Source: Tubulanus polymorphus (taxonomy: Eukaryota > Animalia > Nemertea). From it: a DNA stretch of 64,000 nucleotides. The position numbers and the translations under genes were made by a program. The DNA is taken from contig NC_134029.1 in NCBI RefSeq assembly GCF_964204645.1, positions 18,284,950 to 18,348,949 of the forward strand, given 5' to 3'. The notes under the pieces were generated by a model. It saw only the letters and a program-made list of their open reading frames with translations. It was not told the DNA's origin and searched no databases. Shown here one piece after another: positions 26,801 through 64,000 of the stretch; the stretch's first letter is position 1; the number at the start of each line of letters is the position of its first letter.

Positions 26801-27787
26801 GGTGAACATCGAGCTGGAATATCTCAATGATTACTGTGGTAGAGAGAAACCACGAATATTATGTGGAGTAGAGTAGATCAGTACCATGCTCCTTAATAAA
26901 CAGTTTCTCTCATCCGAACAGTGTCTGGCATTGAATTTTGTATAGTATAATATATTCATTTTTCATAATCCATACATACAATGTTATATTTGGATAGATT
27001 TTAAGTGCACTATATGGTTATGAAGGATCCAGCTGGCTGTACTTAGAATTAAGGCACTGGACCCTGTGCATGGTGCACACGGGTGCAATCGAATTTTGAA
27101 TTGAAATATCAGTGGCGCTATCTAACCAAAATCTATCGACCAAATTTGTTCAAGTTTCCCTTTCACGGTTTTTCCGCCTCATCTGATAATGACAAGTTCT
27201 TTCTTTTATCTACTCCCACACATTTCTCCCCGATCCTCTTAAGCTCTCTCGCCGCGTTCAATATTTCACACTAAAACATAGATGAATAGTCAATGTTTTT
27301 CAACGAACGATTAATTTCATTGCGTGCGAGAGTTTACGATCATCGTCGTCGTCGTACCGCCGGTCGATTCTCATTGGTTACCGTTCTTCGAGCTCGTCTC
27401 TACTCGGAGATCGATAAAACTTATCCATCCGTCCGTCTGTCCGACATTGAAAGCTTCTTCCGCGTTAAATTATTCAACCGCCGAACAAAGATTGTCCGAC
27501 AACGGACGACGACGCGCGATGTAACAAAGCCCCGACGCCCGGATCGGTTTAAGTCAATTGTTATCAATTATAGCAAATTTAATTCCGTACACTCGTCGTC
27601 GCCGCGGCACGGCAGACGTGACTAATCTACCAATCAGATTTACGCGTTTGTCTCCCCGCCGGTGAACACATGTAAATGAAGCCGCACCGCTAGCGGGGAT
27701 GACAAACGCTTCAACGCATGGCGGCTTTGTTCCGAGAAGAATAGCCACAAATGACACCTGATTATAAATGTTCGACTGACTAGTTTA

Positions 27788-27789
27788 TC

Positions 27790-27864
<75 letters not shown>
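27788..27864. repeat. (CT)n microsatellite
   Basis: Directly visible in the sequence. Confidence 0.97.
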
Positions 27865-27867
<3 letters not shown>

Positions 27868-30292
27868 CGTGTATAAGCCGCTATGCCGCGCGGAGAATTC
27901 CTTGAAAGTGACGCCTCGGATTTCGCCGGTTAACATCCTTACGGCAAACGCATCGATCGCGCTTTAATAAAACGATGGTTTCCTGTACCCGCCGGGCTAA
28001 CCGGTCGCGTAGAATATCAACACAATGAAACGACACCGGCAAAAAATACACTGTTCGCTTAAAAAAGAAAACAATCAATTAAATGACACGCTGAGCTAGG
28101 GATGCTAAATGTTAACTCAACTCAAATCATTTCATGAAATTTCAAATTGTAAAATCCGAACTTCAACGATACACTTACTAAGGAGTTCTGGTTAAAAAAC
28201 AGATAAAATATTGATCGACGTGAATATTGAAACATAAAAGGTCATTACTCATATAACTTTATTAATTTATTAGCCCATGTTTGACTTCCCTGAGCCTTAT
28301 CATAAGTGCATTACAAATGTTCTCATTTCAAAGGACCACAATAGGGTTCATATGCCCTTTGCTAATAAGTCATTGAGTACACATGGGGCTTACCATTTCT
28401 ATGTATGTATGTATGCAAAGTGCTAAATTGTGTACAAATTGGGGAAACAGTGAAAGTTGGCAAAATTCTGCATTCACAACATTTCATGGGTGGATCCAGG
28501 GCAGATTTGTACGAGTCTATTAAATTTTTTTGAAGTGTCTTTTTTCATTTCTTCAAAAATTTCACCAAAAATTGGCACATTTCAGCGCATGAGTACAAGT
28601 AATATTGCCTTTTGGATATCATACCGCCTTTTTGGGACTTCAAAATTAGCCTCTGGATCCATCCCTGCATGGTCCCCAAAATATCCTAGCTAGTTATATC
28701 CTAGCGACTAGACGTATATGGATTGAAGGCGAGTGAGCTTCTTTATTCCATACGCGCGCGCATGTCGTCGTGACTTATTTTTTTATTCCTCGGCAGGAGA
28801 AGATTGCATTTCCGCATTCGCCTCGAAGCAGCTATTTCCCTGCCATCAATAATGAACACAGAGCCATTAGTCAGGAAAATCAAGCCATCCACTTCTGCGT
28901 TGTACCTGATGTGCGCGCACGTATAGACGTATAGCTCTGTGCTCTCCAGTCGAGTGATTTTACAGCTAACCGAGTACGAGGAAAAGTGATGGAGAACGTT
29001 GGGATCAGACATTCCGTTAACAACGGCGAATTACAAGAAAGCCACCGTTACATTTTCAATTACTCCGATTCTACTTCGGCTGCAGAATCGGTGGTACTGC
29101 GCAAAAAATTAGAATAACAAAGACTAAAAAAATTGATACCTGCAGCCCATCTACCCCGTACATTACTTATCTTTAAATCATGGTCAAGCTAACAATATAC
29201 TTACAATAACAGACACGGCAACTGAAATTACAAAATCCGATTTACAAAATGACCCGGCCGATTATTTCATTGGTCACATCTTGGGTTCCCAGACTAGGTG
29301 GCAAAGGTGTTACACGGTCAAGCGTAAAAAATTGCCTCCAACCTCAATATCGCAAACAAAAGCCTAGCGCGCATAGCACACAGTGAAAGATACAAATCTG
29401 GAGGAGGAAACAGAAACGCTTTTCAGGCTTGTTTCGTGACAGAATTGTTCCAAAGGAAAAAAAAAGAAACAGCAGAAACGAAACAACATTTGGATAAACC
29501 ATGTTTCATGATTCAGAAAAATGCATTTGTATTCTGAATTCCACAAACCAGGTATAAACAATCTTAACACAACAATACATGGTTTGGTATAGTTTCATCT
29601 CAGCTACGTATGAAATTATCCAAATCACTCGAAGAAACGCGCCGTTAAATCATCGGGCTTCACTGTCTGGTTCATTCAAGTTGCAAATCAGTGCGTATAC
29701 GGATAATGGTTCGAATTTATGTAAATTCAGTCGATATCTCTCAGTGAATTGAAGTGGTGTATCAACGATCAACGCGTATTTGCAATCTATTACTAATGGA
29801 ATCGCGTTGGTAACATCGACGGACGCCCCGGAATGAGAATTACTTTATAGCCTCGATACGAAATGAAGAGCAAACACTTATAACAGTAGAAATATGTTAC
29901 CCGCACGGGCCTGTAGCCAGCCATGTCTTCGGAGGGGTTTCGATTTTCATGAAAGCGGAACTTTTTGTAATACAGGTGCAATGTTTTGCTTTCTAATCCT
30001 ATATTTTGGCCTCACAAATCAAGTACATTCAGAAGCATACGCATATTTTGAACGTAATCGAATAAAAAAATTTTACTAATAATTGAATCTTTGAGGTCGA
30101 TGCTCAAATTCACTTTAAACTGGCATCTGGGCGGAACTTCGTCGATGAGCTTTCGAATCTACCCCCCCCCCCCTAAATACGGGCCTGCCGTCACACGCAA
30201 ATCCGACAACTTCGATTTCGTGAATTTGTCGCTCTTTTACGTTCGACGAGTCTTGTCTTTTACCGCGAGCGTTTCGTTTTTATCATCGGGAA

Positions 30293-30294
<2 letters not shown>

Positions 30295-30366
<72 letters not shown>
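30295..30366. repeat. (GA)n microsatellite
   Basis: Directly visible in the sequence. Confidence 0.97.
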
Positions 30367-30367
<1 letters not shown>

Positions 30368-31652
30368 ACGATAGCGCAATTCAGGACGGACGCCAGGACG
30401 GCACTCAGGGGATAGCTATTGGCATGCTTAGTCATGTTTTCATGTGGTAATTCTCCTTAACGTCAACCTTACATCTTACGCATTAAATGTGATATACCGC
30501 TACGAACTAACTCTCCGACTTCATTAATCTAACGCTGGTGAGGGGTCGTCACCGCTGCCAAACTGCGTTAGCCGCGCTCGCGCCACGCCGGGTCAATAAA
30601 CATTGTTACGTGAATAAAACATTAAACATGACTTTCAGAGTTTTTTCTTAAATAGTTCATGGGCGATTTTTCAATTTTCCTCAATGGAAAGAACAGATAC
30701 ATCCAAAATAAAAGGACTTCAACATAACAATGGAGACTGGTTGATTAAGGTGATTTTCAAGGATTGCATAAGTAAGTTGCCCTTGGCAAATTAGGCGCAG
30801 AGGGGGGGGGGGTGGTATTAGTCTATCCCAATGCAGTCTAAAGCCCAGCTTATGTCAAAGCCTCAGAATGCCAAGAAATAGTCCTAAGATTTCAAAACTT
30901 TCTGGGGATATCCCCCACCCATAAATTCACTCCACACCTACGGCATTTGGTACATGAAATACCCTCATTTCGCATGAGTGGCCTCAATTTTCTTCCGATA
31001 CTGCCTAGATTCAACCCCGATTCCGCGTCTGCCAATGCTGGGCAAAGTACAAAATGAAATTTGAAAATATTTCCTGGACAAGAGGAAAATCTATTGCATT
31101 CCCAAATACGTCCAAATCAGGAAACATTCCAGTTTTACCCTATTCCTGCAACCATGGGAATCATGAAAAAGAGGCAATTCTCGATTCTGCTCTTGAAAGG
31201 AAGTATCTTCTTTCTCTTTCCATTATTGCTTCCGAGTTTCTACCAATTATTTCATCTCAGCGATGGCACAACTGTCTTCTGCTGGGAGAAAACTCATTCC
31301 GAAGAATATTCATGACAAATATCATTCATAATAGATAAGAGTAACTTAATTGGAATGAACTATAAGCAATAAAGGTGCGCTTTATTTATCAATACGTAGA
31401 AATGAGTGTTACACCGTAGTACGGTGAGTCTTAGAAAAAATTTATCCATTATTGATTATTGCGTGTCAATCGTAGTACATGTAATCATAATTAATCTAGT
31501 TTAATTCCCTTCTACCTTCAGGCGAAAACTATGTTATGGATCTTATAGCATCAGCCAATGATTCATATGTTACTGTCTTTAAAACTGTCATTCAATTCAT
31601 TTGTCTGTGTGCGAGCCATGCTCATTATCATTTCTTTCATTAACCAGACTAT

Positions 31653-46512: not shown

Positions 46513-46682
46513 TTACATTGAACGGCAAGGATTTTTCTTCCAGAGGAAATAGAGCTCGCGTTCGATTTCGCGCGTCAGCCGCATTCCAACGGTTTCATCG
46601 GTAAGCAATAATGTGTCGACGTTGTTCTTTTTCATTAGCTGATTTTCGTTGATGAAGAACGCGTACTTGTCATTCGGAGGCG
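46513..46682 (-). CDS. Last coding exon (NTR/C345C-like, part 3)
   Basis: APPNDKYAFFINENQLMKKNNVDTLLLTDETVGMRLTREIERELYFLWKKNPCRSM*. Confidence 0.8.
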
Positions 46683-49600
46683 CTACAAAATGTTAAGAAA
46701 TTTTTTGGAAAATGGAATACAAATTACCATCATGTACGAAGGAAATAAAGTACACATCTCAAGCTAATGTGTGTATGTATATAACCTCCTGTGTGGTTCA
46801 CTCAGGTCAACAGAGAAACCCCACTGGTGGTCCTATATCAGGGTGCCCAATTTTATCTGACTTGCTTTTCCCCTGACTTTTCCCCGACTATTCCCTGACA
46901 TGCATGTTGTTTTTCCTGGCTTGATCCACTAAGAATCCAATCAGCTAACACAGTCAAATATATAAGACATAGACGGAAACTTCAATTCTTCACACGATCG
47001 TAGCAATCTCAACAAATTTCCCTGACTTTTACCCGATTTTTAGCTTTTCTTACAAAATTCCCCGACCATTCCCCGATTTTCAGTTACCCGGTAAGTGGTC
47101 AACCTGTTTGTAAATATATAAACTATCTAACTGAGAATCCAGAATGGCAGTATCATAGTTCCCAGTTAACTGGATCAAAACGATAAGTTTGACTCTACAT
47201 AAAAGTTAATATTAGCCACAGATATATTCTTACCATCTGCCTCGAAAAAGTCGCAGTTGCACATACCATCCATCTCATATTTGACGTACTTATTGACAAT
47301 AACCTTTCCGCGGATGTTTGCACCAAATTTAGCCATCAATCGCACTCGCCCATCTCTCAGAATCATCGTCTTATAAACTACGAATGATAAACAACATCCT
47401 GAGTTATACAGCACAGATTTAACTGAACCATTCACTTTTCCGAATAATACTTTTACCGTACACGGTTTGGCACTGTATTCTGCCAAAGTTAGAAGTTATA
47501 TGGAAATCATAGGAAGTATTGATTAAATGAACTAATCAACAGATCATCAGAGCAAGATATTGGCTGAGCCGATAAAGTGAGCCTTATAAAATCAGGGGAC
47601 AACCCCAGAAAACGTGTGGGAATTGCATCCACGCTTTCTCTGGCTCTGAATTTTTCAAACCTCTCTGTAATAGAACTAGCAGAAGACTTGTATCATGCAC
47701 TGCCCTAGTGCTATACAAGGGCTTGAATCTTAATTGTACTGATGCACAACATACCTGATGCATGGTCGCAGTAAAGTGTCGTGATATTAACTGCTGCAGA
47801 ATCAACTGTCACACACACCGGACAGCCAAGTTTCTTATCCTTTAAAAACAGAAATATTTCTATCAGATGATCATTTTGCTAGTACTTGTAAGATATGGCC
47901 AAAAATGGAAATCGGTTTTAGACTGCGAGCTGATAGTGCCCTCGTACAAAACTTATAAGCCCAAGACCAAACTCGAATTGACTGAATTGGTATATATCCT
48001 GCCAGTATCAAACCTATACCACTGAAAATCGAGAATGAATACGAATGCAAGTACCTGGTTTTCTTCAACTGCTACTTTTTCAATCGTCTTTCTTCTAAAT
48101 CCTTTTGGAGCAGCCAAAGATTGAGGCTGAGCCGGCGCTGGCAGTCTAAGCTGCCCAGCGAATTCACCGGCGGAAAGTCGATCAAATTCCTCTTGGGTAA
48201 GGTGTGGCAAATCCTCCTTTGTTGCGGTCAATCTTTTGCAGCCAGGTAAAATTGAATAGTCTTGTATGACGTTCAGGTCTGAAATAATCACAATCAATAT
48301 GTCAACGTGTGTAGTTTAATTCAAAAGATTGACGAAATCACTGGAAAATTAATTAAATTAGTCGAACAAAGGATATTTCCTACCAGTTTCATAGTAGTCA
48401 TAAACTTTGACGTAACCGGGTTTAGCAAAATCGATATCCATATGTCGTTCAACATCAAATGATAAACACTTTCGCTGCGCGGTCAATTCGTTATAGTACA
48501 AGTAAACATAATTCTTGCTGACTTCGAACTTTTTGATCGCACCATCGGCGCGTTGAACGAGTTTCTGGATGGTTGCTTTCACGGGTATCCAACCAGATAC
48601 CATACGTACTTCGATAACGGCCATGTTGGAAGCGCCATCTGGTCGAGTGTATCTAAAAACAAGATACAATACAAGATTCAATGTCACAGGTAAGATGTTA
48701 CTAGAAGGCTTTTTACCTAATTAAAGAACTAGTGAAGTGGAGCCAGTTCTTAGTTAAATTTGAGTTGAAAATTAGTTAATTTCCAATATCTTGATCCTGA
48801 GTCCAATCTCAACCCTTAAGTTACCAATCTCACAATTTTGCGAGCACCGAACAAACATGTCGTGTCTTTTGCAACTTTTATGACATCATATTGATTGAAA
48901 TGGTTGGTTGGATGGTCAGTTGAATCTACATTTTATGTTCTTTTTTGTTAAATCGAAGTAAATTATTGGAAAAACATTTCAGTTCATTTTTGATTCTGAT
49001 TTACTATCATACCGGTACGGTATGTGATCTCCCGCACAGCAAGGGAGATCTTGGGAACTTAGATAACATACCCATGGGATACTCTTTCACGGGTTTTCAA
49101 GCACAGGCCCTCCACCAACTAAAGATGTCCCATGCCTGGTGGTGGGCACGGGTAGTAAATTTATAGCTGAAGTATATATAGCAACACTATAGCAAAAAGT
49201 AAGTAGTACCAGTGAGAAGAATTATTCCCTTAACTACTGCAAATTTTTTGCTGTATTGGTATAAGCCATTGAAGCAGAGGTGATATATTTTCGGGGGTCT
49301 ATCATGGCCCCATATTTCAACTAAATAGGCTTTGAATATTTCAAACATGTGCAAAAAATCGCTAAGAAATCACTGACTCAAAAACAAATAAATACTGTTA
49401 TCCTAGGCAGAGGAAGCGAATTCAGGTCACCCATGTCTGTGTAGGCAAGCACACTATACTAAACAGCTGGATGCTCACAGCGGGCAACTGTTTATTTTGA
49501 TCAGTGTGCGCAGTGACGTCACGTAGAGCGTCCCAACTTAAGTGGTCCAAAACTCTATCTGAAATTTAGCGTATCCGCAAAAATTTGATCCTAAAACATA

Positions 49601-52600
49601 CATATGACCAGTATCTTTCATTTGGTACCAAAAACTTGTTCAAGCATAGCGCACAGACCGCGTCAACCCCTAACAAAGTTTCGCCGTTTGTCTCTTATAG
49701 TATACGGTAGATTAATCCGGTAACCTTACTGTTAATTTATGACTTAGGAACTGGGTGATGATTAACAACAAAATTCTTTTAACAAAACTAGGGACGAGTT
49801 TAATTTTCTATCTTTACTTACGTAGTGCAAATGCCAATACTTCTTTTTTTACATTCACCTCGTTTCCTCGATACAATAGTGTTCAGCGTAAAAGCTGGAG
49901 TTAATTTTACTGATTTTTTGATATTGTATTTTACGCTAGCCTGAAAACGACAAAGGATACACACGCATAACAGAATGACGCTAATCCATGTAAGGTATGA
50001 TTAGTTTGGAATAAGGATTTGTACCTGAAGAAGAGCACATCCCGTTCCATTGGCAGAAATGACCAACAAATCTGGTACTTGGATTGTCCTCTTTTGCAAC
50101 AATAAACGGTTATCATCATTCACCGAGAAGGAGACGCCGGCTAAGTGTGAACCTTGAGCTGAAGTGTACACCAACGATTCTTTCTTGTGAGCTAGAGCCG
50201 CATAATCGGCAAGCGCTTGCAAGGCAACGATCGTATCCTGCGTAGACGTGAAACCTCCGGCTGAATTTCTCTGTCGCGCAATCCATTTCACAATCGGCAG
50301 AGCTTCAGCCACGCCGGCTGCTCCTTTGTGATTCAATAATGCCATCAACGCGTAAGATGTTAACTCCACATCGGCCGAAGCGGCTTGATGATGAGGCTTC
50401 CAGGACTCAGCGACTTCCATGATCGGTTGAGCGGGCCGCTGCCAATGGGTCATACCATCTGAAAAAGAATTTATAATGGCAGCATAATTCCCCATGGTGG
50501 GGTGAACAATTAATTGGATAATCCTGATTCTACATGAAGACATGCATCCTTTGACACTGCTAATTATTACTAACACTAGTATCAAGACCATGAGACAACT
50601 GATTCCATCTATGGACGAATGAACAAATGGATGGATGAAAAAAGTGAATGCAATAGCCCACCAAAACTCACCATCGGTATAGCAGACTCCACAAATTTTC
50701 TATATTTTACCTGAATTTATCGAAAGTGTTAATAACACAGCCATTAGATCCAACGCTTTTTTACTTGATGGATTGTACAAGGAGTAGGTATAAGCCATCA
50801 ATGCTACAAGATATGGGTCAGTCTGATCAATAGTTTGCGACTCCAAGCAACCCACAGCAGCTACCACAGCAGTTGACTGAAAGACAAATAATTTTTATGC
50901 ATCTCTTTTGCTTCATAAAGCTTTAACCGCATTTAACCTGTGAAATAGTACATATGTTAAAACAAATGTAAATGGTTGATAATATCTATTTCAAGACTGC
51001 AGATAATATGGAAATTAGATGTCTAGTAATACGTTATTTTATTCAATAATGGTCGATTCACCAATAAGCCGCTCTCAAGTCATTTCTTGGATGCTCAACT
51101 TGATGAAAACTTTATAGTCCCTATCGAGTAAGTTTACTATATTTTGATCTCTGAACTATACTACCATAGTTTTACTTTATTTACCTCTGAACCCAATCCA
51201 GCTTCCAACATAGCCATCAAAACAAATGTAGTCAATCCTACAGTTGATGAACCACCACTGAGACCACCTTTCATATCTTTATGCAAAACACGGCCAACCT
51301 TGAAATATAAAGCAGATATTCACAAATTGATATACTGATGATACTTCATATTGAACATCCATAAACTGGACCCGATTAGGCAAAACATTTTACATTAAAT
51401 ATCTTTTTCCCTATCATCGGGAAAAGATGGAAATGTCTGTTGAATTAAGCTTCTCAATTACTACAGTTGTTATATGAAAATGAAGCCTATGTCTAGAAAA
51501 CCAATAGTACAAGTACAAATGTTCAAGAGTGGTGAAACTTAATCAAACCTGAGGGAAACATCCATTTTCAAGTTGTTGCGATTTGAACCAGTCGATGCTC
51601 TTCTGCAGATGTTCATCGTCGATGAAAATATACGGTTTCGATTGGGCAAAAGATTTAACAACGAAAGCTGTCAACCACATACTACCAGACGGGTCACTAT
51701 TACCAAATGCACTGAACGAACCATCATTATGTCTGTAGTTTAATTCCCTTTGATATCCTGTAAGCAAGATTTAAGACCTAATTTTTTTTTTTTACAATGG
51801 GATACCAACAACGATAGAGTGACAAGCAAGGATTCAGTGATAATCCAGGATCGCTATTGGCACCGGGCTTACCGCGCTTCAATTTCCATCTACATTTCAA
51901 TGAGTGAAAAAGGGAATCTTATATCTATGCGATGACTTATTTGATGTTTAGATATGGCAACCTAAAAATCAAGTTCAAATTTCATTGAAAATGAACTGAT
52001 TCTTACTAACAAATAACCCAGGAAGAAAGACACTCTGAATATTTGGATGGATATATGAAAGCTGTGGGTACTGGAGTGTGTAATGGGTAGTGTAGTGTGA
52101 TCTGTGTGCATTTGTGGCCAGCACACAGATCACATTGTTCAATGGGGTTTGGTCCAGGACTCACGAGATTTTCAACAACACGGAAGTAACGTGTAATAAA
52201 TGATGACTTGAATTGCATGACTACCTACTATCCCTCATTATTGTTGGAAAACTAAACGTTCGGCACTGACTAAAAATTAGTAATAACATTTTAGAAATGG
52301 CCAGAATTTTAACTTAGGTTCTATCTCATTTTTATTTTACAATTGCGATTGGTATGATTTTTTTTAAACGGCCGTTAAGGCTTCATGTTTCGTCTGCAAT
52401 TCACTGCAAATAGTTACGCAACTACGCACATTTCAGTGTTTTTGGCAGCTGTACACTCAATCGGCACCGTTCGTGACTAGCTTCACTACGGAATTATCAT
52501 TAATTAACATCGCCATATCACATCATCAACTTATATTGTGCCTTAAAACCCTAACAGCCGAAATAATTGAAATGCACACACGACTTCTATCATTGAAAAT

Positions 52601-55600
52601 TGAGAGAGTGGCCATGTTTGTGTTTACTGCTTCGCGTAAATCCCGGAGTGGGGCCCATACGTCCAGTGTTTTGTTGCCCCATCTGGTGAGTGATGGTATC
52701 CTATTGGATAGATGCGTAGGAATTCTACTACATGTCTTAAGCTACGGTATATCTAAAACTGCAGACAAACCTCTTTTCATGTGTGCGAGGGCTTTTGCTT
52801 CAACATTCGGCGTTAGTTGTTTGGTAGCAGTGAGATATTGCAACACGAATATATTCGGAGTAAATGTGATCATGTTCTGTTCTCCACAGCCAACTGGAAC
52901 AGTTAGCAGTTTGTCCAATCCGGATAAAGTCGGTCCCATAAGATCACCTGGAGTCAGAGATAAATCAAGATCATGTTTAAGTTAACCTACCGCTACGTTA
53001 TATCCACTCCACAGTGGCTCTCCCTCTCCCTCCCTGATAAGCCCTTCTGGAATTAAAGCCCAACAAAATTGCGTGAAACACATCAATTACTACGGGTGGC
53101 CACTTTTATCTGACTTGCTTTTCCCTGACATGCACGTTGTTTTCCCTGATCTGCTAAGAATCCAATCTTTAATCACAGTCAAGTACATATGTTATTGACG
53201 GAAACTGTTTGATTTTCCATGCAATCTAGCAATTTCAACAAATTTCCCTGATTTTTAGCTTTTTTCTTTTTTTTACAAATTTCAATAATTTTTTTAAGAA
53301 AAGAAAATTCCCCGACTTTTCCATGATTTCCAAGTGAACAGTATTTAAGGTGTTTCCCAGAAAACACCTGTATAAAATTTCCATGCATACCAACAACTGA
53401 GAGTTGAGCTCGTGCAGAATCAGGGACGAGGTTTTCAGGCAGATTTAAATCGAATGTGGTAGAGTAACCGCGGTAATCTGCAATTCAAAAAGATCAGAAA
53501 ATTGATCATGAAGTGTGCCATAATTGAAAGATATTGAAAAGGAATCAAAGAATATGGTTACAACGTACCTGGACACACTAATGAGCTCAGAGAATATTCC
53601 TCCTCAATTCCTTCCGCCTGAAATACAGACAATCATTCAAGTTCAAACATCAGTTTTAAAGAACAGTCAAAACCAATGCTCAGTTGCACCACTTATTCAT
53701 ATTTATAGGTTAAAAGCAGTAACTATTCTTCGAAGAAAATCTAATCATCTAGAAATGTAGCTACTAGATCCATGCCTCGAATGTGATGGTCCACGGGCCG
53801 GGGTCAAATTCATGATCCAAGTTTAACTCACTGGCTAGCCCATTGCTGAAAGTTAAAAATGGTCTATTAAGCCGAGCCCAGACGACTTACCTCAACCAGT
53901 AGTTGCCTAACGACAGCATCAGATGCCCCTTCACCGGTAAGTGTCTGAGTTAAAATGATATTTCCACAAACCAATGATTTATCCGATGAATAAGCCTACA
54001 ACAATAAGAACCTTGTGCTTGAAGCTAAATTCCTTGATATTTCTCTAATGCTGAGGTTACCATTGATAGTTTTATGTATGATCTTTCAAAGGATGCATAC
54101 GTATGACATGTATGCTGATTTAGATTAGCTTGAAAGGAAATTGTACAATTTCTATTTAAGTAGGTTTTCATCGCTAGTTGCCTACTTACATAGACAGTTA
54201 TATTAACTTTTCCGAGAGTTTTTGGAATGACATAGAATGTATGCGACTTCTGCTCATTCGCACACACGCACACGGCAGCGTTATTGGTTCCATTTATTGT
54301 ATAATCATCCGAGTGTCTCAACGTCAAATCAATCTGAAACACGAACAAAATAGGCACGACTGAAAGAAATGACATATAAAGAATTCACTGAAATTTACAA
54401 GAATACAATTATTGCACGGCTCAAAATGCTATGGCTTCTCGAAGAAAGAATGAGCTCCAAAATAAGTTTTTTGATGTAAGGGGTTAATAATTGACTACCA
54501 GGTATCTAGGGAGATAGTTGGAAATTTAATCAACTGCGAGTCAAATGTGCTAGGTTTAACTGCATCTACAGAAATGGATGGCGGGAGTGATAACAGGTCG
54601 TCCCCACACGAACCGGATTAGCAAATTCAACAGTAGGGAAATTCAAACATTTCGTCTGGGACACACGTCGTAATCCGAGTGACAAGCGCAGTCAACTGTA
54701 TATATGAACCATCTGAAATGTTCAAATTTTTGAGTCACGTGCCAGTATTGGAAATCCTATTGACATTATTTTCGTATCATACTTACAACCAGGCACTGCG
54801 TTAAGTAGTTAAACACGGTCACTAAAACCGGCACCTTCTCGCCACGAATGACTGAGTAGGGAAGAGTAAATGACACAAAGAATGGCTGAAATCCTTTGAC
54901 GCGAGTGACTTCCGAGAGTCCCATTCCCATCTGTAAATTCGTGCACAAACTTCTTCCAACCCATTCTGTAATTGTGTGCGGTAATCGTTTCTCGAGATTC
55001 AATTCACCAGTAGGCCTAAAATTTGGAAAAATATTCATTAATGATATTGAGAGTACTAACTTTAACCCCAGGGAAAACTCATGAATTTCTTAATAGCGTG
55101 TTTGCGGTACTAGGTTCTGGGCTCAATGGTGACTGTTTACTCATTGCCTGCCAAACATGTACTGGTACGTTCGATATTTCCCATCCCTTGCCCGCCAAAA
55201 CCGTACTGGTACGATTGGCTTGTTTCTTAACTCAAACGATGGCGAATTCATCACACAACACCAGGTAGTTTAATGCCTTTTACTACTAGAACAGATTATC
55301 ACCAGTCAAACGATGCAGTGTGTTAGTTATATCATATATTGATATGGGGTCTGAAAACGCATGAATGGGCATATTTTCTGCAAAATAACCCCCCCCCCCC
55401 GCAATGATATATCAGTGCGCGAGCACCTGTGAAGATAAAGATGGGGATAACACTTCGTTGCCGGGTAAAACCGATATAGACAATTCACTGACAGGTAGGC
55501 TCTTCATGTGCCTCAAGACTTTCCATAATTCGTAACGATTATGGGAACCTAAATACAACAGGCTATGATGGTCATAGCTAGGATCCTGGGTACAGACAAA

Positions 55601-58600
55601 TGACGCGTTACATGCATCGGATTATCAGTTCTATATGATACATAATTATGGGACTATCATGGTAGTAGAGATACTACAAGTGTTGTTTGGTGAATGGCTA
55701 GCTACGATATGGCAGGCAGTGTCAAGTTAAGCTGAAAGTAAGAGAACTGTTTTCATAGTTACCCGACAGTTTCAAGGTCGAACAACCACGTTTCGGGGAA
55801 GTATGACCTAATTTCACTTGTTGCTTGTCTTTCTTTTCTCCTACGCTGAACAGAATGATCTTGTTTAATAACTGCACCCCCGGAGGCCATCGGAACTGGC
55901 CCTAGTCAAATCAAGAGAAAATTGAGTCTGAAGTTATAAGCATATTTATAAGAAGCCAAATATCGCAAGACATTCTAGTATGATGCTCCAGACTATGATC
56001 ACGTGGGATATGTATTTTTAGCAAGAAAATGCATGGCCCAGGATTTATCCCAGATGATTCATGTCCTGAGACATTTCATTTGTTGTGAATTTCAAAACAT
56101 ACATTTTATCATCAAAATTTCTTTTAAATAGTTTCACAAGATTATTGTTGTATTATCATGAAAATGGTAGAACTTGTTAACAGAGTGAATAAGCTTGAGG
56201 TTGTGATGATAGATATTGAGGGTTACCATGCTGACTAGAATATCATTCAAAATCAGTTCAAAAAGTCTTATTTCACCAGAAGGATTATCTGAATATGAAG
56301 CAGATGACCAACACCAAAAGCCCTGTTCTATGTTTGAGACTTAAGCCTCAATCGCGAAGAGATGATTCGGCTGGGTAAACAGGCACCGGCCCATTTGGCA
56401 GCCCAGCGAACAACCAAATTTGATCCGGGGGAAAAACGTTTGTGTGTTCATGGTTTCAAGATAGAATTAAACCACCAGTAAGCTAATTCAGATCCTCTGT
56501 AGCAAATTAAAACTTATCTTAAGATTTAATTCCAATTAACTGTTTCAAACCTCTAAGTCAAACATAGAACACGGCTGCAGGTAACCATTTCGTGAAGCTT
56601 TATTTTTATTGAAAATCTATCGAATTAATCCACTAATAACACCGTGATCAGCTATTGAATCACGAATAACGAGGCGATTCATTTCAATAACATAAATCAG
56701 CTTCGCAAAACAGACCACCGATGATTTCTATTTGATATCCTAACTCGTCAATCGCAGAAAAGATACAGGAATCAAATGGTATTATCAGTGATAGTTATGA
56801 TTGATGCATTTGTGAAAGTACCTTGACCACCATCATCATCAAATTCGACTGCATCTGCGATTCTCCAGTAAGCCTCTCTCACTATACCACATGGACGAGT
56901 TTCAATATCAAAATCGCTCATGACCAATGAACCAACATCCTAATATAGTGATTTACGTTAGCAGTGCATATGTTAAGCAAATGATTATGTTACATGCCAT
57001 GGACACATGTTCATGCAAAATATCAAAAGGAAAGTTTTCGAACAGGAAGAAACGAAATCGACATTTCTCAGAATTATTTCACATGCATGAACATGATCCA
57101 AAAGCAAGTTATGTCTTTTCAGCCAGCCTTCAGGGTTTCAATTCGAACATGTGGCATGGAAAAAATTGTGACAAGTAAGAATTCTATAAAGAAGATCTCA
57201 ACATCTCTTTTAAGCCACCCTGGACACTTGCGAATTTTGTCCCCGCAATGCGTTGTGGCAAGGCGTGCCATTTCGGTGGTACATCACAGACATTTAGATG
57301 CTTATGATGCAATGATGCGTGCCGAATATTCGAACATTTTAAAATTCTCTCTACAACATGGCACACCCCCTCGCACCCTTCACACTCCTCACGCTCATTC
57401 CTGATGACTTTAAGTAATGGCACGCTGAAGTGCGTGCCATTGCGGGGACAAAATTAGTGTAAGTGTCGACGTCGCTTTACTCATTCTTACTATTCCAGTG
57501 TCGGACTAGATATAGCGGTATGATATATTTTGACCAAATTTCTGAAATTTGAAGCCCTAATAAATGGCCTTCATGATTAAACATTTAACTGACCGAGCTT
57601 TACTTTAGCTTTCAGCAATTGTCGGGTACGTATCTTTCATTTACAGGCCGATGCTAAATGATACCCTTATCAAACCCTTGAACATGAAAGTAGGTAGCTT
57701 TCCAACAAGAAATAGTATTGCCGAAAAAGGAGGCAACCTTATGAAATCATTTGAATTCCAATCAGCAGAACGCCAACAATTTTTCTGCCAAAACATTTTT
57801 GTCAACGGTATGAATTTTATTTTATTCTTTTTAGTCAGCATAGTTGATTTCACTGACCTAAACGTTAATTGACCCCACAGGGTTGCAGTCAAAAAGATGA
57901 CAAATGAATTCATTTGAAAATGGATTAACACAGATGTTCTATGACGGCCAGAGAAGAACCAGTTTTGTTCCCAGCAGTGAGGTAGGTTCGTAAGGGCCAC
58001 GCCAAATAAATAGTGAAATCAAATTGCTAATTGAAATGAGGAAGAGGGAAAAGTCATGCCTATCTCAAGATTAAAGCTGATACTGAACTTCCAGGTTTAC
58101 CATGATTTGTGAAATATGGAAGAAAGCTAAAATCAATATCGCAGCGCCTTGTTTCAAGTGAAAAATCACTTAATATCAATATGCCTACATCCTGAGTAAC
58201 AAAAAACATGACAATTAAACAGTTTTAGACACAGTTATGTTGATACGCGTATTACTAACTTCTAATCAAAATTCTATGTAAAATGGAGGTCTGTCTGCTT
58301 CTGTTGTCAATAAGAGCTTTGCGATGAATGTTGCTGTTATATGATACAGATAGTCAGATCTGGTGAAAGACCCACTAATACCCTGAAAGCTGGCCGACTA
58401 ATAGACACGGGCACATTGGCGAATTATTACCTGCAGGACCTGGCACACTGGCCCTCGAATACGCTACGACATAAAGAACTTGTTTACAAGGCCTCGTTTC
58501 AATTTCCAAGTCGGTCGAAACTACGAAGCCTAAATCCTAGTATAAGTAGAGGAGAAATCACGATGATTGAATTTCTAGCCGGAAACAATTCAAACCCTTC

Positions 58601-61600
58601 TGGTGAGTGAGCTTGGACCAATAATATCACAAAGTTAATGCATCATGATAACCATGCAGCCCAGGCCTATCAAACTACCAAACCATTCAATATCCTTCAA
58701 CAACGAAAAATAATTACCACGTCGGCCCTGTTTACGTCTCAGTTTTGTTTTCCTATATGCAATAGAAATTGCATGGCATGGTCTGGTTTCGATCTGTAGA
58801 TTGCTTATAACTGTGACACCTACATCCTAGCAAAATTTACGGTTAACTCTTTCAACTCTTCTAAACATTGAACCACTCAATATACAGTACAATATGAAGA
58901 GTAACTGCTAGACTTCAAATACTGACAAACGTTAAATCAGGGAGACCAATGAGCTTGAATAATTCAAAGTCTGAACTATGTATCTTCGACGTGGTTTTGT
59001 TATATCGAGATAACATTCGGTCATTTAGTCATCAAGCAAACCTCTTATGTACCTTCTATTCTCAAATTAGAAGTAGTGGATGTTTTTATACAAGCGACTA
59101 GCACTGACATTAATGAGTTATTGCTAAATTTGTTAATTACAAGTTTCGGCCACAATTCTGTCAATTTATATCCAAACAGCTAAACTACTGAAATCATTTG
59201 AAATGCCTTGACTGAAGTTCTGAATAAACAGCAAACAAGTTAATCTATCGCAAGTAGCAATAGCGCTTATACCACGAGTTTGCAGAGCCAATCATTTATT
59301 CAAAAGTATACCGTCCTAACTAAGGAAGAATAAATATCAGTGTTTTGTTATATAAGTTAAACTAAAATGCCAAAATTCTTCTTTATAGAAAATTCTTCCC
59401 AATCATTTGGTTATCAAATCGACTCATTCAATTCATTTCTACATACAGGTTGGTCAAGGTGATTACAAATTCAGCCAGGAAGGTTAGTTGAATCAGTGAT
59501 TCATTAAGTATTGATACATGATATTAGTGAAAAAGATAAATCAAACTGACTAAAAATCCACAGCATTTGTGGCATATTACCATCTTCCAAAGACGACATA
59601 AGAAACACTACTCTGGGTTCTTTGAAATCGCAAGGTCTCGTTTCAATGTCAAAATCAGTTAATATCGCAAAACTGACATCCTATTCGGGAATACATTTTT
59701 AACAACAAATAGAAACATTTCATTTCACGCAAACAGCAGTAATACATCAAACAAACATTCAATCTCTACTGAATTCAAGCCATATTGATTGAAATTATTT
59801 ACCTTGAACGCTTTGATTGAGTCGTAATACGAACTAGAACGGCCAGACCAAGGAAATCTAACATCACGTCGCTGTCGGTTGTCACCAGGTGGCCCAGCGG
59901 GCATAGGAGGCCCACGAGGATCGTGTCGAATATCTAAAACATTTTAAAAGCAAATTTCACCGAATTTCTACCAAACATATCAGGCATGAATAAGGTGTCA
60001 GACCATCCTTACCATCATCAGCATTTCTGCAGTGATCTCCACCAAATTCAAACGTTTCTGGACGCAGTGAAAATGAATCGACAAGTGAAACCACCTAAAA
60101 TGACCATAGATATATCAAAAATGTCAATATTCATAACTATATAGTCTTGATTCTGTTATAGCCGGTATTCATTCTAATCAACTAACTTTAGCCGGAGTTA
60201 ACTGCTTGTTGGCTTTTAGAAGGTGTACGCTCTTATCGACAACCCCAACACTGCACAATGATCCTGGAGCAGCATTCAGCTTCAGATTAACAGGTGCTCC
60301 AGGAAGCGCTTTTTCCTTCTCAAAATTCAATGAAACCTACCAATACAATAAAAGTGACGTACATGAAAATGGTGAACATATATGTGAAGTGATATACACC
60401 AGTGAACAATATGCCTTGACATTTAATGAAATTTGACATTTACCTTGTTTCGGAAACAACTCGCTACTGCAAATTCTTGACTATCAGCGATAACTTCTCC
60501 ATCGGGCCGTACACTATAAACTAACAGACGAACACCTCCGGACAGTTCTGGTTTGATGAACAACTGAATTGGTGAAAAAAAAAAAAACAACATATAATCA
60601 CTCCATTCACTTCCAGCTGACAGATAGATCTGCAGGGTTTGTAGTAGTAGTAAGGCCGAAGAAAAAGTCAGCAACTATAAGTATTTTAGTAGAAGTAAGC
60701 ACTTGATAAAGCACTTTCATAAAGCATAAGTGATACTTTATCCTTATCTACAACATAAATTGTTGAAACAAATAACAGTCATGGACAACGTTTATACTGG
60801 AATTTTTGAAATTTCTGTGACCATTTTGAAATATCGGTGAAATTTAAGCACTTTCAAAGGCCTTATTAAATTTTTTTTCAAAAGTAAGTGTAAGCACTTT
60901 GAAGCACTTTGGAGACATGCTATGAACCCTGTAAAGCCCAGTGCCCACAGCAAGAAAACCCTAGAAACAATTTTGTGCAAATCTTTTTATTCATTTCGAT
61001 GTCTAGTTCACCTGCTATTGTAACACACGGCGAGTGCAACTAGCCAACAGTGAGTAACTTACATTGATCTTGAAATGGGCAATATGTTTTTGGGTCCTTA
61101 GTTCCTCTCCTTCTTCCTCATTTTCATCGATAATTTCTGTTACTTCATCCGATTCATCTGATTCTTTAAAATGAAATACAAATATGTCATAAAATAATTG
61201 ATACAGCCTCCCATATACTGAATTCATAGTAATCTTATACTTTTTGCATATGTGCATGAATAATCAGGCCCATAACGCGACTGATTATATGGGCCGTTTC
61301 ATTTTCCGAAAAATACGGCCTTTTTGGTGAAACTTCTTGAAATGGCGCTGGAAGGTAAAAGTGTTGCGTCGTGACGGCAAATAAGCCTGCAATTGAAGGA
61401 CTCCTATGGAGTTTTATGCCAGTACTAAATACCTTGTAGGCCTAAGACCGGAAGTAGAGAGGACAAGCCTGGGATTTTATCTAATTCGAGCAAAAGCGGA
61501 GATTTTGGCTGGTTTGTCGAAAAACCCTTTAGTTCGCCCGGAGGACTGATAATCAACTGAGGTATAACTTTTTACCTCCAACTGCTGGTGCTAGTTCTGG

Positions 61601-63609
61601 TTCAGACGCTGTTTCATCAAGTAGATCTCGCTTTCGTCTGCTTGACAATGCTACTTTCACGTCATAGTCATGAATCTTGAAGTAATGCCCAATGCGGCCT
61701 TTTTCAACTACTTCACCGCGTTTTGTCATTGCCTACAAAAAAAACCCAGCAACTATCGAATCACTCGATCCAAAACTACAAACATTAAATGGCAAATCCA
61801 ACAAATGTCATCAAATACCTGATAATAAAATGTAGTGGATGAATCGCTGTCAGTGGTATATGTAACATTGATATCATAAGCTTTGTTACATTCCATTGTG
61901 TTTTCCTGATTAATTATCTGAACGGCGTAACCCGATTTCGAGTACCAATTGCGAATGTGCACCGAATTGTACGAAGAACGCATGCGATGCCTGCTATAGT
62001 CTGTGGAGCTTGGTTCTTGAAATTTAACCTAAAACAGTAACATTCAGAAAAATATTTATCCGAGCGCAGAAAAATGGCAAATCCAGAACAATGAGAATTG
62101 ATACAATTCATGTCTCCCGAATGCATATAAACCAATATGGTTTCTTTCGGAAGAGGATTCAAACCCCTCCATGAATCAAATAATTCTCTGTTAACTCTCA
62201 AAGCTGTAACAATTAAGTATAACACCGAAATATGACACAAAAGTGTTTTTGTCATTTGAGATGTTTTAGAAAATGAAGTCGAACCTCGGCAGAAAGTATC
62301 GAAATGTCAGACTATGTCTGCTCATCCAAAAATCCCTGCCTCCAAATTCAGTAAGGCTGAACAAAAATATTAATCAATAACACATTGGTATAAGAAACCA
62401 TTTGACAATTACCATTATATTCAGTCGTTTGACATGTTCACCTATCTTTGGCAGATATACTGAATAAACACCCTCTTCATTTGTCAAGATTTGCTTTTCT
62501 TGTTCAAGTTCCTTTGAGCCGTCGATATTCAGGGTTATTTCTTGGAAGGCTGCCGGAGTACCGTCTGGTCTTCTTAGTACACCCTACAAAGAATTATCAT
62601 TCACTTTAATTACTCCATACATTCCAACAGCAAATGTACTAACTAAATATGAATACTCCTACATGAAATGATTTAAGGGGTTCGTTCCCTTAACTCAGTG
62701 AATAAGACATACACCTTAAATATTCCTCCTTATTCTGTTAATTGTTCCCAAGTCGGTGAACTTGATAAACCCTGTTATTCCGTTATCATGGTTATAGATA
62801 TTCCCTGTCCAGGTTTAGCACCTTAACATGAACATCCTCCGACCGGAATCTCACCAAAAACTATATGATCTACTCACTTTTCCCATATAAGGCAGTCCAG
62901 GTTTGAAGAAATCTGGCATGCCAGTACTGTCGAATTTAAATCGTTGGGTTTCAAGTGGTGAGCTTGAACTACCATTCAGAATAACGCCTAAATTAGTGAT
63001 AAAAATTTTCATACAATCACTGGGAATTAAGAAAGAAACCATTAACATGTATGGATGATAGAGTAACTGACCCGTGGCGGTCTCTTTTACTTTGGCAAAA
63101 ACGTGTAGCTTCGTATTCCAGACACTCATGGTAGAATCGTTAAGTCCAAGTCGATCAGCTGATAAACTGAACTCAGTGCAGCGGTTTATCTGCGAGCAAT
63201 TGAATGATTGTAGTGAAACAAATATATCAGGAACAAATCTTGCATCTTAAGATATAGACGAAAGATTTCTACATTATCATACGATCAAAGATTTTTCAAT
63301 CAAACGCACCGCTAAGGTACCATCAAAATATTCATATCCATCAAACTAATGGTCACAATGCATTCACAAAATATGCATATTCAGTGGCAGTGATGAATCT
63401 AAGTATTGGCAACATAATATTGTTCAGAACAATCATTTAGCAGCTTTGATAGTCAAAAACTGAGCAGCAAGATTTAATGATCTATTATAGGCATGCTGAC
63501 CTTTTCCTTAAGGGTAACTGGTGGCCTTTGCCGATGAGCAAACCGGTTACCCGACTTGATTTGCAATGTAGCCTCTATATCCCCGATGACAGGTTTTCCG
63601 TAAGTATAC
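46513..63609 (-). CDS. A2M: Alpha-2-macroglobulin-like thioester-containing protein (multi-exon; 5' end lies beyond the window)
   Basis: Hand-spliced GT-AG exons with consistent phases: 63501-63609, 63072-63189, 62878-62987, 62413-62583, 61819-62028, 61576-61732, 61063-61163, 60444-60563, 60187-60336, 60013-60094, 59803-59933, [one of 5 bait exons], 55763-55901, 54787-55015, 54190-54333, 53891-53995, 53569-53617, 53391-53477, 52771-52947, 51549-51757, 51185-51298, 50711-50876, 50025-50458, 49822-49940, 48384-48652, 48055-48278, 47755-47839, 47234-47377, 46513-46682 (TAA). Family motifs: [123 protein letters not shown]. The A2M symbol is family-level, not proven orthology. Confidence 0.95.
46839..47106 (+). 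mobile_element. hAT-like MITE in an A2M intron; second copy at 53093-53341
   Basis: cagggtgccca...ttttatctgacttgcttttccc(c)tgac...aagtggtcaacctg; internal ttccctgac subrepeats shared by both copies. Confidence 0.7.
47234..47377 (-). CDS. C-terminal exon (NTR/C345C-like, part 2)
   Basis: VYKTMILRDGRVRLMAKFGANIRGKVIVNKYVKYEMDGMCNCDFFEAD; gtaaga donor. Confidence 0.8.
47755..47839 (-). CDS. C-terminal Cys-rich exon (NTR/C345C-like, part 1)
   Basis: DKKLGCPVCVTVDSAAVNITTLYCDHAS; aag/gtatgt; phase 0->1. Confidence 0.8.
48055..48278 (-). CDS. End of MG8 plus C-terminal linker exon
   Basis: DLNVIQDYSILPGCKRLTATKEDLPHLTQEEFDRLS...KVAVEENQ|gt. Confidence 0.8.
48384..48652 (-). CDS. A2M receptor-binding (MG8) exon
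   Basis: [23 protein letters not shown]...VYLYYNELT...AKPGYVKVYDYYET. Confidence 0.95.
49822..49940 (-). CDS. A2M-like exon (start of MG8)
   Basis: ASVKYNIKKSVKLTPAFTLNTIVSRKRGECKKRSIGICT. Confidence 0.9.
50025..50458 (-). CDS. A2M-like TED/CUB exon
   Basis: GMTHWQR...[13 protein letters not shown]...[33 protein letters not shown]...GTGCALLQ. Confidence 0.97.
50711..50876 (-). CDS. A2M-like TED exon
   Basis: STAVVAAVGCLESQTIDQTDPYLVALMAYTYSLYNPSSKKALDLMAVLLTLSINS. Confidence 0.9.
51185..51298 (-). CDS. A2M-like TED exon carrying the catalytic-position His
   Basis: VGRVLHKDMKGGLSGGSSTVGLTTFVLMAMLEAGLGSE. Confidence 0.92.
51549..51757 (-). CDS. A2M-like TED exon
   Basis: [46 protein letters not shown]...QLENGCFPQ. 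Confidence 0.97.
52771..52947 (-). CDS. Thioester exon (GCGEQ at 52877-52891)
   Basis: [38 protein letters not shown]...HMKRG. Confidence 0.97.
53391..53477 (-). CDS. A2M-like exon
   Basis: DYRGYSTTFDLNLPENLVPDSARAQLSVVG. Confidence 0.9.
53569..53617 (-). CDS. A2M-like small exon (start of CUB)
   Basis: AEGIEEEYSLSSLVCP; 49 nt. Confidence 0.85.
53891..53995 (-). CDS. A2M-like exon
   Basis: AYSSDKSLVCGNIILTQTLTGEGASDAVVRQLLVE. Confidence 0.9.
54190..54333 (-). CDS. A2M-like exon (MG7)
   Basis: IDLTLRHSDDYTINGTNNAAVCVCANEQKSHTFYVIPKTLGKVNITVY. Confidence 0.92.
54787..55015 (-). CDS. A2M-like exon (MG6b/MG7)
   Basis: [20 protein letters not shown]...[35 protein letters not shown]. Confidence 0.95.
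55763..55901 (-). CDS. A2M-like exon (constant 3' bait part plus FPETW)
   Basis: [47 protein letters not shown]; starts in phase 1. Confidence 0.92.
56262..56312 (-). promoter_or_regulatory. Candidate intronic docking site for mutually exclusive splicing
   Basis: Pre-mRNA CCUUCUGGUGAAA (56271-56283) is complementary to intron segments at 58596-58606 and 58359-58368. Confidence 0.45.
56343..56455 (+). mobile_element. Internally deleted MITE 'agccgcgatcacac' copy in an A2M intron
   Basis: aagcctcaatcgc...aaaaacgtttgtgtgttcatggtt. Confidence 0.5.
56822..56939 (-). CDS. Alternative bait-region exon E
   Basis: ag|DVGSLVMSDFDIETRPCGIVREAYWRIADAVEFDDDGGQ G|gtactt; 118 nt, phase 0->1. Confidence 0.88.
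57212..57478. mobile_element. MITE between bait exons D and E
   Basis: gacacttgcgaattttgtccccgcaatg ... cattgcggggacaaaattagtgtaagtgtc inverted ends. Confidence 0.7.
58101..58191 (-). CDS. Alternative bait-region exon D
   Basis: ag|DVGILILSDFSLETRRCDIDFSFLPYFTNH G|gtaaac; 91 nt, phase 0->1. Confidence 0.85.
58431..58536 (-). CDS. Alternative bait-region exon C
   Basis: ag|DLGFVVSTDLEIETRPCKQVLYVVAYSRASVPGPA G|gtaata; 106 nt, phase 0->1. Confidence 0.88.
58718..58826 (-). CDS. Alternative bait-region exon B
   Basis: ag|DVGVTVISNLQIETRPCHAISIAYRKTKLRRKQGRR G|gtaatt; 109 nt, phase 0->1. Confidence 0.88.
59581..59680 (-). CDS. Alternative bait-region exon A
   Basis: ag|DVSFAILTDFDIETRPCDFKEPRVVFLMSSLED G|gtaata; 100 nt, phase 0->1. 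Confidence 0.88.
59803..59933 (-). CDS. A2M-like exon with RQRR processing site; last constant exon before the bait cassette
   Basis: DIRHDPRGPPMPAGPPGDNRQRRDVRFPWSGRSSSYYDSIKAFK; ends in phase 0. Confidence 0.88.
60013..60094 (-). CDS. A2M-like exon (linker)
   Basis: VVSLVDSFSLRPETFEFGGDHCRNADD; phase 0->1. Confidence 0.8.
60187..60336 (-). CDS. A2M-like exon (MG6a, VDKSV)
   Basis: [50 protein letters not shown]. Confidence 0.92.
60444..60563 (-). CDS. A2M-like exon (end of MG5)
   Basis: LFIKPELSGGVRLLVYSVRPDGEVIADSQEFAVASCFRNK. Confidence 0.92.
61063..61163 (-). CDS. A2M-like acidic exon
   Basis: ESDESDEVTEIIDENEEEGEELRTQKHIAHFKIN; phase 1->0 is required to link the neighbouring exons; gtaagt donor. 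Confidence 0.8.
61576..61732 (-). CDS. A2M-like exon with RRKR furin site
   Basis: AMTKRGEVVEKGRIGHYFKIHDYDVKVALSSRRKRDLLDETASEPELAPAVG. Confidence 0.85.
61819..62028 (-). CDS. A2M-like exon
   Basis: VKFQEPSST...RNWYSKSGYAVQI...ECNKAYDINVTY...TFYYQ. Confidence 0.85.
62413..62583 (-). CDS. A2M-like exon (MG4)
   Basis: GVLRRPDGTPAAFQEITLNIDG...TNEEGVYSVYLPKIGEHVKRLNIM; phase 0->0. Confidence 0.85.
62878..62987 (-). CDS. A2M-like exon (FKPGLPY, MG4)
   Basis: VILNGSSSSPLETQRFKFDSTGMPDFFKPGLPYMGK; gtgagt donor. Confidence 0.9.
63072..63189 (-). CDS. A2M-like exon
   Basis: INRCTEFSLSADRLGLNDSTMSVWNTKLHVFAKVKETATG; phase 0->1. Confidence 0.85.
63501..63609 (-). CDS. A2M-like exon (YTYGKPV, MG3 region)
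   Basis: ag/gt flanked; YTYGKPVIGDIEATLQIKSGNRFAHRQRPPVTLKEK. Confidence 0.9.
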
Positions 63610-64000
63610 CTGAAAAACAGACGAGAAACAATCATTTTCATAAATATTTTTTTAGCCCGGTTTCATGTGCAATCAGTCGTTGTGATACCTACAGATAATA
63701 TTAGGGCACTGGACACATAATCTACTAGCATTTATTACCCATAATAACAAGACCAACAAAATAAGGGACAGGTTATAATCAAAACAGGACAATATAATCT
63801 GCAATATGGCTCCAGAAAAAAGAGAATGTGGCACTTCCAGAAGATTTTGAGATGTAGAAACTACTGGACTCAACAAATGCTGGTATAAGGTCCCAGTGGA
63901 AGAAGAAGCTTGTCCGATTGGGAAAGAATGAAACAAAAGTTAAGTCCAAGCAGAAGAAACTGTGATACATTTACGGTGATTGAAATTGTACAACTACTTA

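Follow-up and report, generated by a model that had tools for sequence, protein, structure and literature searches.

A cassette of five alternative bait-region exons in an alpha-2-macroglobulin gene of the ribbon worm Tubulanus polymorphus

Known systems with alternative bait exons

The 64-kb stretch of the genome of the nemertean Tubulanus polymorphus analyzed here (hereafter the window; all positions refer to it) contains an alpha-2-macroglobulin (A2M) gene in which five homologous tandem exons, A to E, are located between two constant exons. Each of these exons encodes a conserved 17-residue structural stem, ending in Cys, that is followed by a variable tail. The cassette is real, expressed and already annotated, and arrangements of this kind are already known from ticks, snails, scallop, shrimp and Drosophila. 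Among the ticks, IrAM has seven bait variants and TAM has four (PMC5438962), and both are, like the Tubulanus protein, true A2Ms with the bait diversified by splicing. The tick isoforms, however, retain a single stem, with short segments added or dropped behind it, whereas the Tubulanus gene exchanges whole stem-plus-tail exons. In Biomphalaria, BgA2M has 3 variants and BgTEP2 has 12 mutually exclusive exons, and the TEP of Chlamys farreri (CfTEP) has 6; the same source refers to bait splicing in shrimp A2M, in scallop TEP and in fly Tep2 (PMC7016707). As thioester proteins of spiralians whose bait-like region is encoded by tandem alternative exons, BgA2M, BgTEP2 and CfTEP resemble the Tubulanus gene. 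BgTEP2 differs in that its exons are conserved at the C-terminal end rather than at an N-terminal stem, and in being an insect-type TEP, unlike the A2M of Tubulanus. CfTEP is presumably an insect-type TEP as well. Exon 5 of Drosophila Tep2 gives rise to five isoforms (PMC5489563). Although this is another case of five alternative forms of a hypervariable bait-like region, Tep2 is an insect TEP, not an A2M. The available portions of PMC12939704, PMC9835746 and PMC11359984 provide background on mechanisms or nothing on bait cassettes. A search of titles and abstract openings, with most subscription papers outside its scope, found no literature describing bait cassettes in nemerteans, octocorals or amphioxus.

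Organization and conservation of the cassette

In the Tubulanus gene, one A2M exon occurs as five tandem copies, which are with high probability used as splicing alternatives and are each predicted to alter the first half of the bait. The features involved are the following:

46513..64000, minus strand: host gene, alpha-2-macroglobulin of Tubulanus polymorphus; 1733-1742 aa, thioester GCGEQ
59803..59933, minus strand: upstream constant exon (IRHD...RQRR...DSIKAFK), ends in phase 0
59581..59680, minus strand: exon A, isoform X4 (XP_074651837), 100 nt; aliphatic and acidic tail; RNA joint from the upstream exon to A
58718..58826, minus strand: exon B, isoform X2 (XP_074651835), 109 nt; basic tail (8 of 19 residues K or R); RNA joint from the upstream exon to B
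58431..58536, minus strand: exon C, isoform X3 (XP_074651836), 106 nt; aliphatic tail (8 of 18 residues); RNA joint from C to the downstream exon
58101..58191, minus strand: exon D, isoform X5 (XP_074651838), 91 nt; aromatic tail (4 of 13 residues F or Y); RNA joint from the upstream exon to D
56822..56939, minus strand: exon E, isoform X1 (XP_074651834), 118 nt; acidic tail (6 of 22 residues D or E); both RNA joints
55763..55901, minus strand: downstream constant exon (GPVPM...RRRKER...RSYFPETW...), starts in phase 1; shared second half of the bait

All five cassette exons are flanked by AG and GT, start with GAT, have a length of 1 modulo 3, lead from phase 0 to phase 1 and are free of stop codons; the coordinates, flanks, starts, phases and translations given in the original prediction, which was made from the sequence of the window, match that sequence exactly. 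The first 17 codons align gap-free, with D1, E13, T14, R15 and C17 invariant. Thus, the predicted 17-residue stem ending in Cys is present throughout, whereas the ETRPC ending attributed to it does not apply to exon D, which has ETRRC. A stem profile scores 60-67 for the five exons compared to 28 for the best other site in the window and, when any one exon is left out of the profile, the omitted exon still ranks in the top 5. No sixth copy was detected in the window with this profile; a search of the whole genome with exon E matched only exon E, with one candidate scored, and is a weak test for further copies.

Pooled over the 10 exon pairs, the stem shows pS of 0.78 and pN of 0.25. The tails are only 28% identical between exons at the nucleotide level, as are the upstream introns, and yet all tails are stop-free, although this is the case for only 11-18% of the AG-started stretches of such lengths. 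Given this divergence at synonymous sites, with tails as diverged as introns, the sequences indicate that the exon copies are old and that selection on the protein holds the stem, in agreement with the purifying selection that was originally predicted for each copy.

The RefSeq collection already includes five A2M isoforms of Tubulanus polymorphus (XP_074651834-838, in one protein cluster), so that the suggestion that the cassette was probably unannotated did not hold. Each isoform contains exactly one cassette exon (X1, E; X2, B; X3, C; X4, A; X5, D; 5 of 5), located at residue 750, and the remaining 1703 aa are identical in all five.

Expression of the cassette is indicated by contigs of sequencing run X2 (distinct from isoform X2), which was treated as RNA: the record carries no RNA label, and the contigs skip CT..AC introns. 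Among the 15 joints listed, 12 such introns of the host gene are skipped, compared to none in runs X3 and X4 from the same sample; low or absent cover of 57939-58872 in the latter two runs was not used as evidence, and run X5 contributed a single short piece. Across 13 contigs of the cassette, six of the ten expected joints are seen: four lead from the upstream exon into A, B, D and E, and two lead from C and E into the downstream exon. Every cassette exon has at least one spliced joint, and only E has both. Joints between two cassette exons are absent from the X2 contigs, which represent one sample. The RefSeq models, each with a single cassette exon, and the frame of the multi-exon forms (see below) agree with this, and the presence of one cassette exon per mRNA, as originally expected, is likely.

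The host gene

One constant exon has a 100% match named as Tubulanus polymorphus. The protein belongs to the alpha-2-macroglobulin subfamily: its Pfam domains, thioester, ranking against PDB and position in the tree place it with A2M rather than with CD109/iTEP or C3. Seven Pfam families score above the cut-off, in the order MG domains, A2M_BRD, A2M, TED and receptor-binding domain; the thioester motif GCGEQ is intact at residue 1056 of isoform X2; the PDB ranking is human A2M (1.8e-227), CD109 (3e-171) and C3 (1.7e-86); and the protein falls among A2Ms in the FastTree tree. No Pfam match to an anaphylatoxin domain was detected in the protein, which contains a bait region instead. Together with the RefSeq isoforms, these results bear out the prediction of an alternative cassette in the bait region of an A2M. 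The start codon lies approximately 3 kb past the end of the window.

Several other features of the gene and its surroundings were observed. The RQRR motif in the upstream constant exon is likely a chain-processing site. Residues 534-580 (window about 61060-61786) contain another dibasic motif, RRKR, ahead of a long acidic insert, and two cleavages of the protein during secretion are possible. The Cys-rich C-terminal tail (residues about 1613-1736; window 46513-47842) can be aligned to the Pfam NTR/C345C domain found in amphioxus A2M as well as to the tails of the Lineus and Dendronephthya proteins; it receives no Pfam call for this domain itself and is missing in the Tubulanus paralogue. Isoform X1 has His at residue 1174 (window about 51290), compared to Asn in the Limulus and bird proteins; this column decides the preference of the thioester for hydroxyl or amine groups. 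An intron of the gene contains a high-copy repeat (window about 51950-52700) that is very deep in three runs of sample S2. Elsewhere in the window, 27308-31208 includes 56 perfect inverted repeats of at least 14 nt and is probably a repeat array, and a dispersed repeat with the translation ...DTKQC... is present in several copies across 18-40 kb.

Reading frame and choice of a single exon

Whatever the spliceosome does, the full protein can be made only from an mRNA with a single cassette exon because the upstream exon ends in phase 0, the downstream exon starts in phase 1 and all other combinations stop. All five single-exon forms are open whereas the 27 other combinations all meet a premature stop: the 26 multi-exon forms within the second cassette exon and the form skipping all five exons 154 nt downstream. 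Nonsense-mediated decay is predicted to clear such double or skipped products. It has been argued that decay is insufficient for clusters of more than three exons, since the lengths can sum to a multiple of three, and a five-exon cluster is beyond what decay alone can handle under that argument (PMC6071210). By contrast, in the Tubulanus cluster the shifted frame reaches a stop first.

Exclusivity itself would most likely result from competition between splice sites. The acceptors of A, B and E contain 9-10 pyrimidines in 20 nt, compared to a mean of 12.8 in 12 constant introns. Steric exclusion was rejected, given that the introns between the copies, at 181-1161 nt, are not short, and so was incompatibility with the minor spliceosome, all sites being GT-AG. 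Rbfox-type TGCATG and GCATG motifs are not enriched (143 and 127 of 500 shuffles).

It appears unlikely that exclusivity is mainly enforced by competing long-range RNA pairing, with a docking site and selectors as in Dscam. RNA pairing is named as the major mechanism in PMC6071210, and the cassette contains three perfect inverted repeats of at least 14 nt, a number matched by none of 500 shuffles. In addition, three nested complementary arm pairs connect the A-B intron (59377-59467) with the flanks of exon E (57182-57195, 56963-56986 and 56813-56829), one of these being a perfect 14-mer, and could possibly represent long-range pairing. Nevertheless, three models of a Dscam-like docking site were all non-significant, equally good results being obtained with 35 of 40, 4 of 25 and 1 of 25 shuffles, and as many perfect repeats are found in 4 of 14 other stretches of the window. 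The inverted repeats of the cassette thus remain only a lead. Two local inverted repeats flank exon E in the D-E intron and the E-downstream intron (57233-57455, 18 nt perfect, 187 nt apart; 56319-56576, 19 nt at 95%, 220 nt apart). They have a shape resembling that of miniature inverted-repeat transposable elements and are hardly repeated in the genome, with one weak other match for the former and none for the latter.

The bait and the predicted range of proteases

Of 66 aligned proteins, all 66 have the stem Cys and 65 have a second Cys (residue 700); the two may form a disulfide, as in human A2M. Direct alignment to PDB misses the stem, which was mapped through a multiple alignment with fish, bird and frog proteins and the predicted structure of the octocoral homologue from Paramuricea (mean pLDDT 79.9). 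In this model, the stem has a pLDDT of about 87-90 and contains a strand, and residues 754-795, starting 3 residues after the stem Cys, are disordered. The bait of human A2M spans residues 690-728 (PMC8267569), and human residue 724 aligns with residue 812 of isoform X1. By this mapping, the bait of the Tubulanus protein would span residues about 767-816, comprising the 13-22 variable residues after the Cys and about 28 shared residues including RRRKER. Accordingly, the idea that the cassette diversifies the bait applies to the variable residues but not to the larger half, which is common to the isoforms.

In human A2M, the sequence of the bait determines which proteases are inhibited, insertion of a substrate site confers inhibition of the respective protease and, for MMP2, a site at 703 outperformed a site at 710 (PMC8267569). 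By analogy, the five Tubulanus isoforms likely differ in the range of proteases caught; the innate immune diversification originally proposed for them is putative. Under the proposed scenario, the copied exon had to carry the stem, with its linker strand and invariant Cys, so that selection would have kept the stem, whereas the exposed tails became basic in B, acidic in E, aromatic in D and aliphatic in A and C. Cleavage of the bait by a protease would trigger the trap and lead to capture of that protease by the thioester, as is the case for human A2M, and the five isoforms would thereby broaden or adjust the range of target proteases.

Alternatively, the isoforms could be real and differ little in protease range, the tails drifting under the weak requirement for an open frame and disorder while the shared RRRKER half does the trapping. 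Identity of the tails at the random level, the 28 or so common bait residues and the report that human A2M bait has no structurally essential part (PMC8267569) are compatible with this possibility. It is nonetheless distinctly unlikely: retention of five copies to synonymous saturation requires a reason, the tails are sharply unlike in charge and aromatic content, and pairs of basic and acidic alternatives recur among chiton and spider isoforms.

Alternatives in other animals and origin of the array

For comparison, 30 protein clusters were examined through annotation records; this sample is biased, the clusters having been picked mostly for several members. Stem-bearing alternatives are found in five of these: the host gene, Dendronephthya (4 forms, identical except for a segment of 35-41 residues), Paramuricea (3 forms plus two models carrying two tandem copies) and two Branchiostoma clusters (2 forms). 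In 12 clusters, from ticks, horseshoe crab, spiders, a chiton, a snail, bivalves, Owenia and a brittle star, the alternatives are located behind a single stem, and in the remaining 13, one of which was unparsed, there are none. In the A2Ms of Dendronephthya gigantea, Paramuricea clavata and Branchiostoma, the alternative segment starts at the same residue as in Tubulanus and includes the stem and the Cys. Unlike in Tubulanus, there are 2-4 alternatives with species-typical stems, known from protein records alone, and in amphioxus the second half of the bait is swapped as well. The Branchiostoma P0113 cluster has alternatives in both bait halves, which yields combinatorial isoforms. In isoforms of the chiton (P0015/P0080) and a spider (P0031/P0103), a short basic bait segment is exchanged for an acidic one, as between B and E.

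A Pfam search of the Tubulanus genome revealed at least 3 loci with A2M domains. The two besides the host gene, with 20 kb examined for each, contain one stem each; one is an A2M and the other is C3-like in appearance. The single stem exon of the paralogous A2M also starts right after AFK, that is, at the same upstream boundary. In the FastTree tree, this paralogue is the sister of the host gene (support 100), followed by Lineus, whose cluster includes one annotated protein. The mean likeness among the five stems is 9.6 of 17 residues, compared to 6.8 with the paralogue and 6.4 with Lineus. Because the sister paralogue has one copy, an origin within the lineage is favored, and the simplest reading, albeit not proven, is that the array arose after the split from the paralogue, most likely in the Tubulanus lineage. 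The independent origin that was considered possible at the outset thus appears probable.

These comparisons suggest that the same stem-bearing segment was duplicated repeatedly across lineages. A cassette of ancient origin, common to octocorals and amphioxus and lost in most lineages, would account for the variation of the same segment with the same boundary in Dendronephthya, Paramuricea and Branchiostoma. This scenario appears quite improbable, given that stem likeness within species is 9.6, 11.5 and 12 of 17 compared to 6.0-7.7 between species, that the sister paralogue is single-copy and that 25 of the 29 other clusters (one unparsed) lack stem-bearing alternatives. More plausible, although still tentative and slightly short of an even chance, is independent duplication of the stem-plus-bait exon into mutually exclusive arrays on at least three occasions, in octocorals, amphioxus and the palaeonemertean, owing to the 0-to-1 phase that makes double and skipped products stop early, as all 27 such combinations do in the Tubulanus cluster.

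Completeness of isoform use

Several observations weigh against the full five-isoform interpretation. Four of the ten joints, namely from the upstream exon to C and from A, B and D to the downstream exon, are unseen in the X2 contigs, so that the predicted set of junctions was recovered in part. After A, B and D, the contigs extend into the following intron, one contig reads B-intron-C-downstream, and complete use is demonstrated for E alone. All RNA comes from one sample on which the RefSeq models may rest as well, so these lines are not independent. The shared bait half with RRRKER implies that trypsin-like proteases could trigger every isoform. Finally, when stems from outside were drawn at random, 930 of 10000 sets attained a likeness of 9.6, and therefore the stems alone are no proof of a lineage-specific origin. 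With regard to the joints, contigs indicate presence only. Assemblers prune rare branches; such pruning and partly spliced RNA can each account for the missing joints, which constitute a gap rather than a refutation. That only E, and perhaps C, yields protein in quantity, with A, B and D rarely completed and mostly found in intron-retaining, unproductive RNA, is very improbable: the joints seen on both sides of E alone, the run of contigs from A, B and D into introns and the depth of the upstream-E joint (104 compared to 8-20 for A, B and D, contig depth being a poor measure) fit this view, but all five stems are under purifying selection, all tails are stop-free, RefSeq has complete models for all five isoforms and contigs lose rare branches.

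Implications

Altogether, the cassette extends bait-region splicing to Nemertea, a phylum for which no report was found, and leaves existing knowledge of A2M and mutually exclusive splicing unchanged. The five isoforms form a natural panel of baits on one scaffold, with which the influence of bait chemistry on the range of proteases can be tested. That octocorals, amphioxus and a ribbon worm each duplicated this exon would be a tidy case of convergence. If the arrays indeed arose repeatedly owing to the phase of this exon, the exon would be a hot spot, predisposed to the convergent evolution of protease-trap repertoires in which basic, acidic and hydrophobic baits complement each other.

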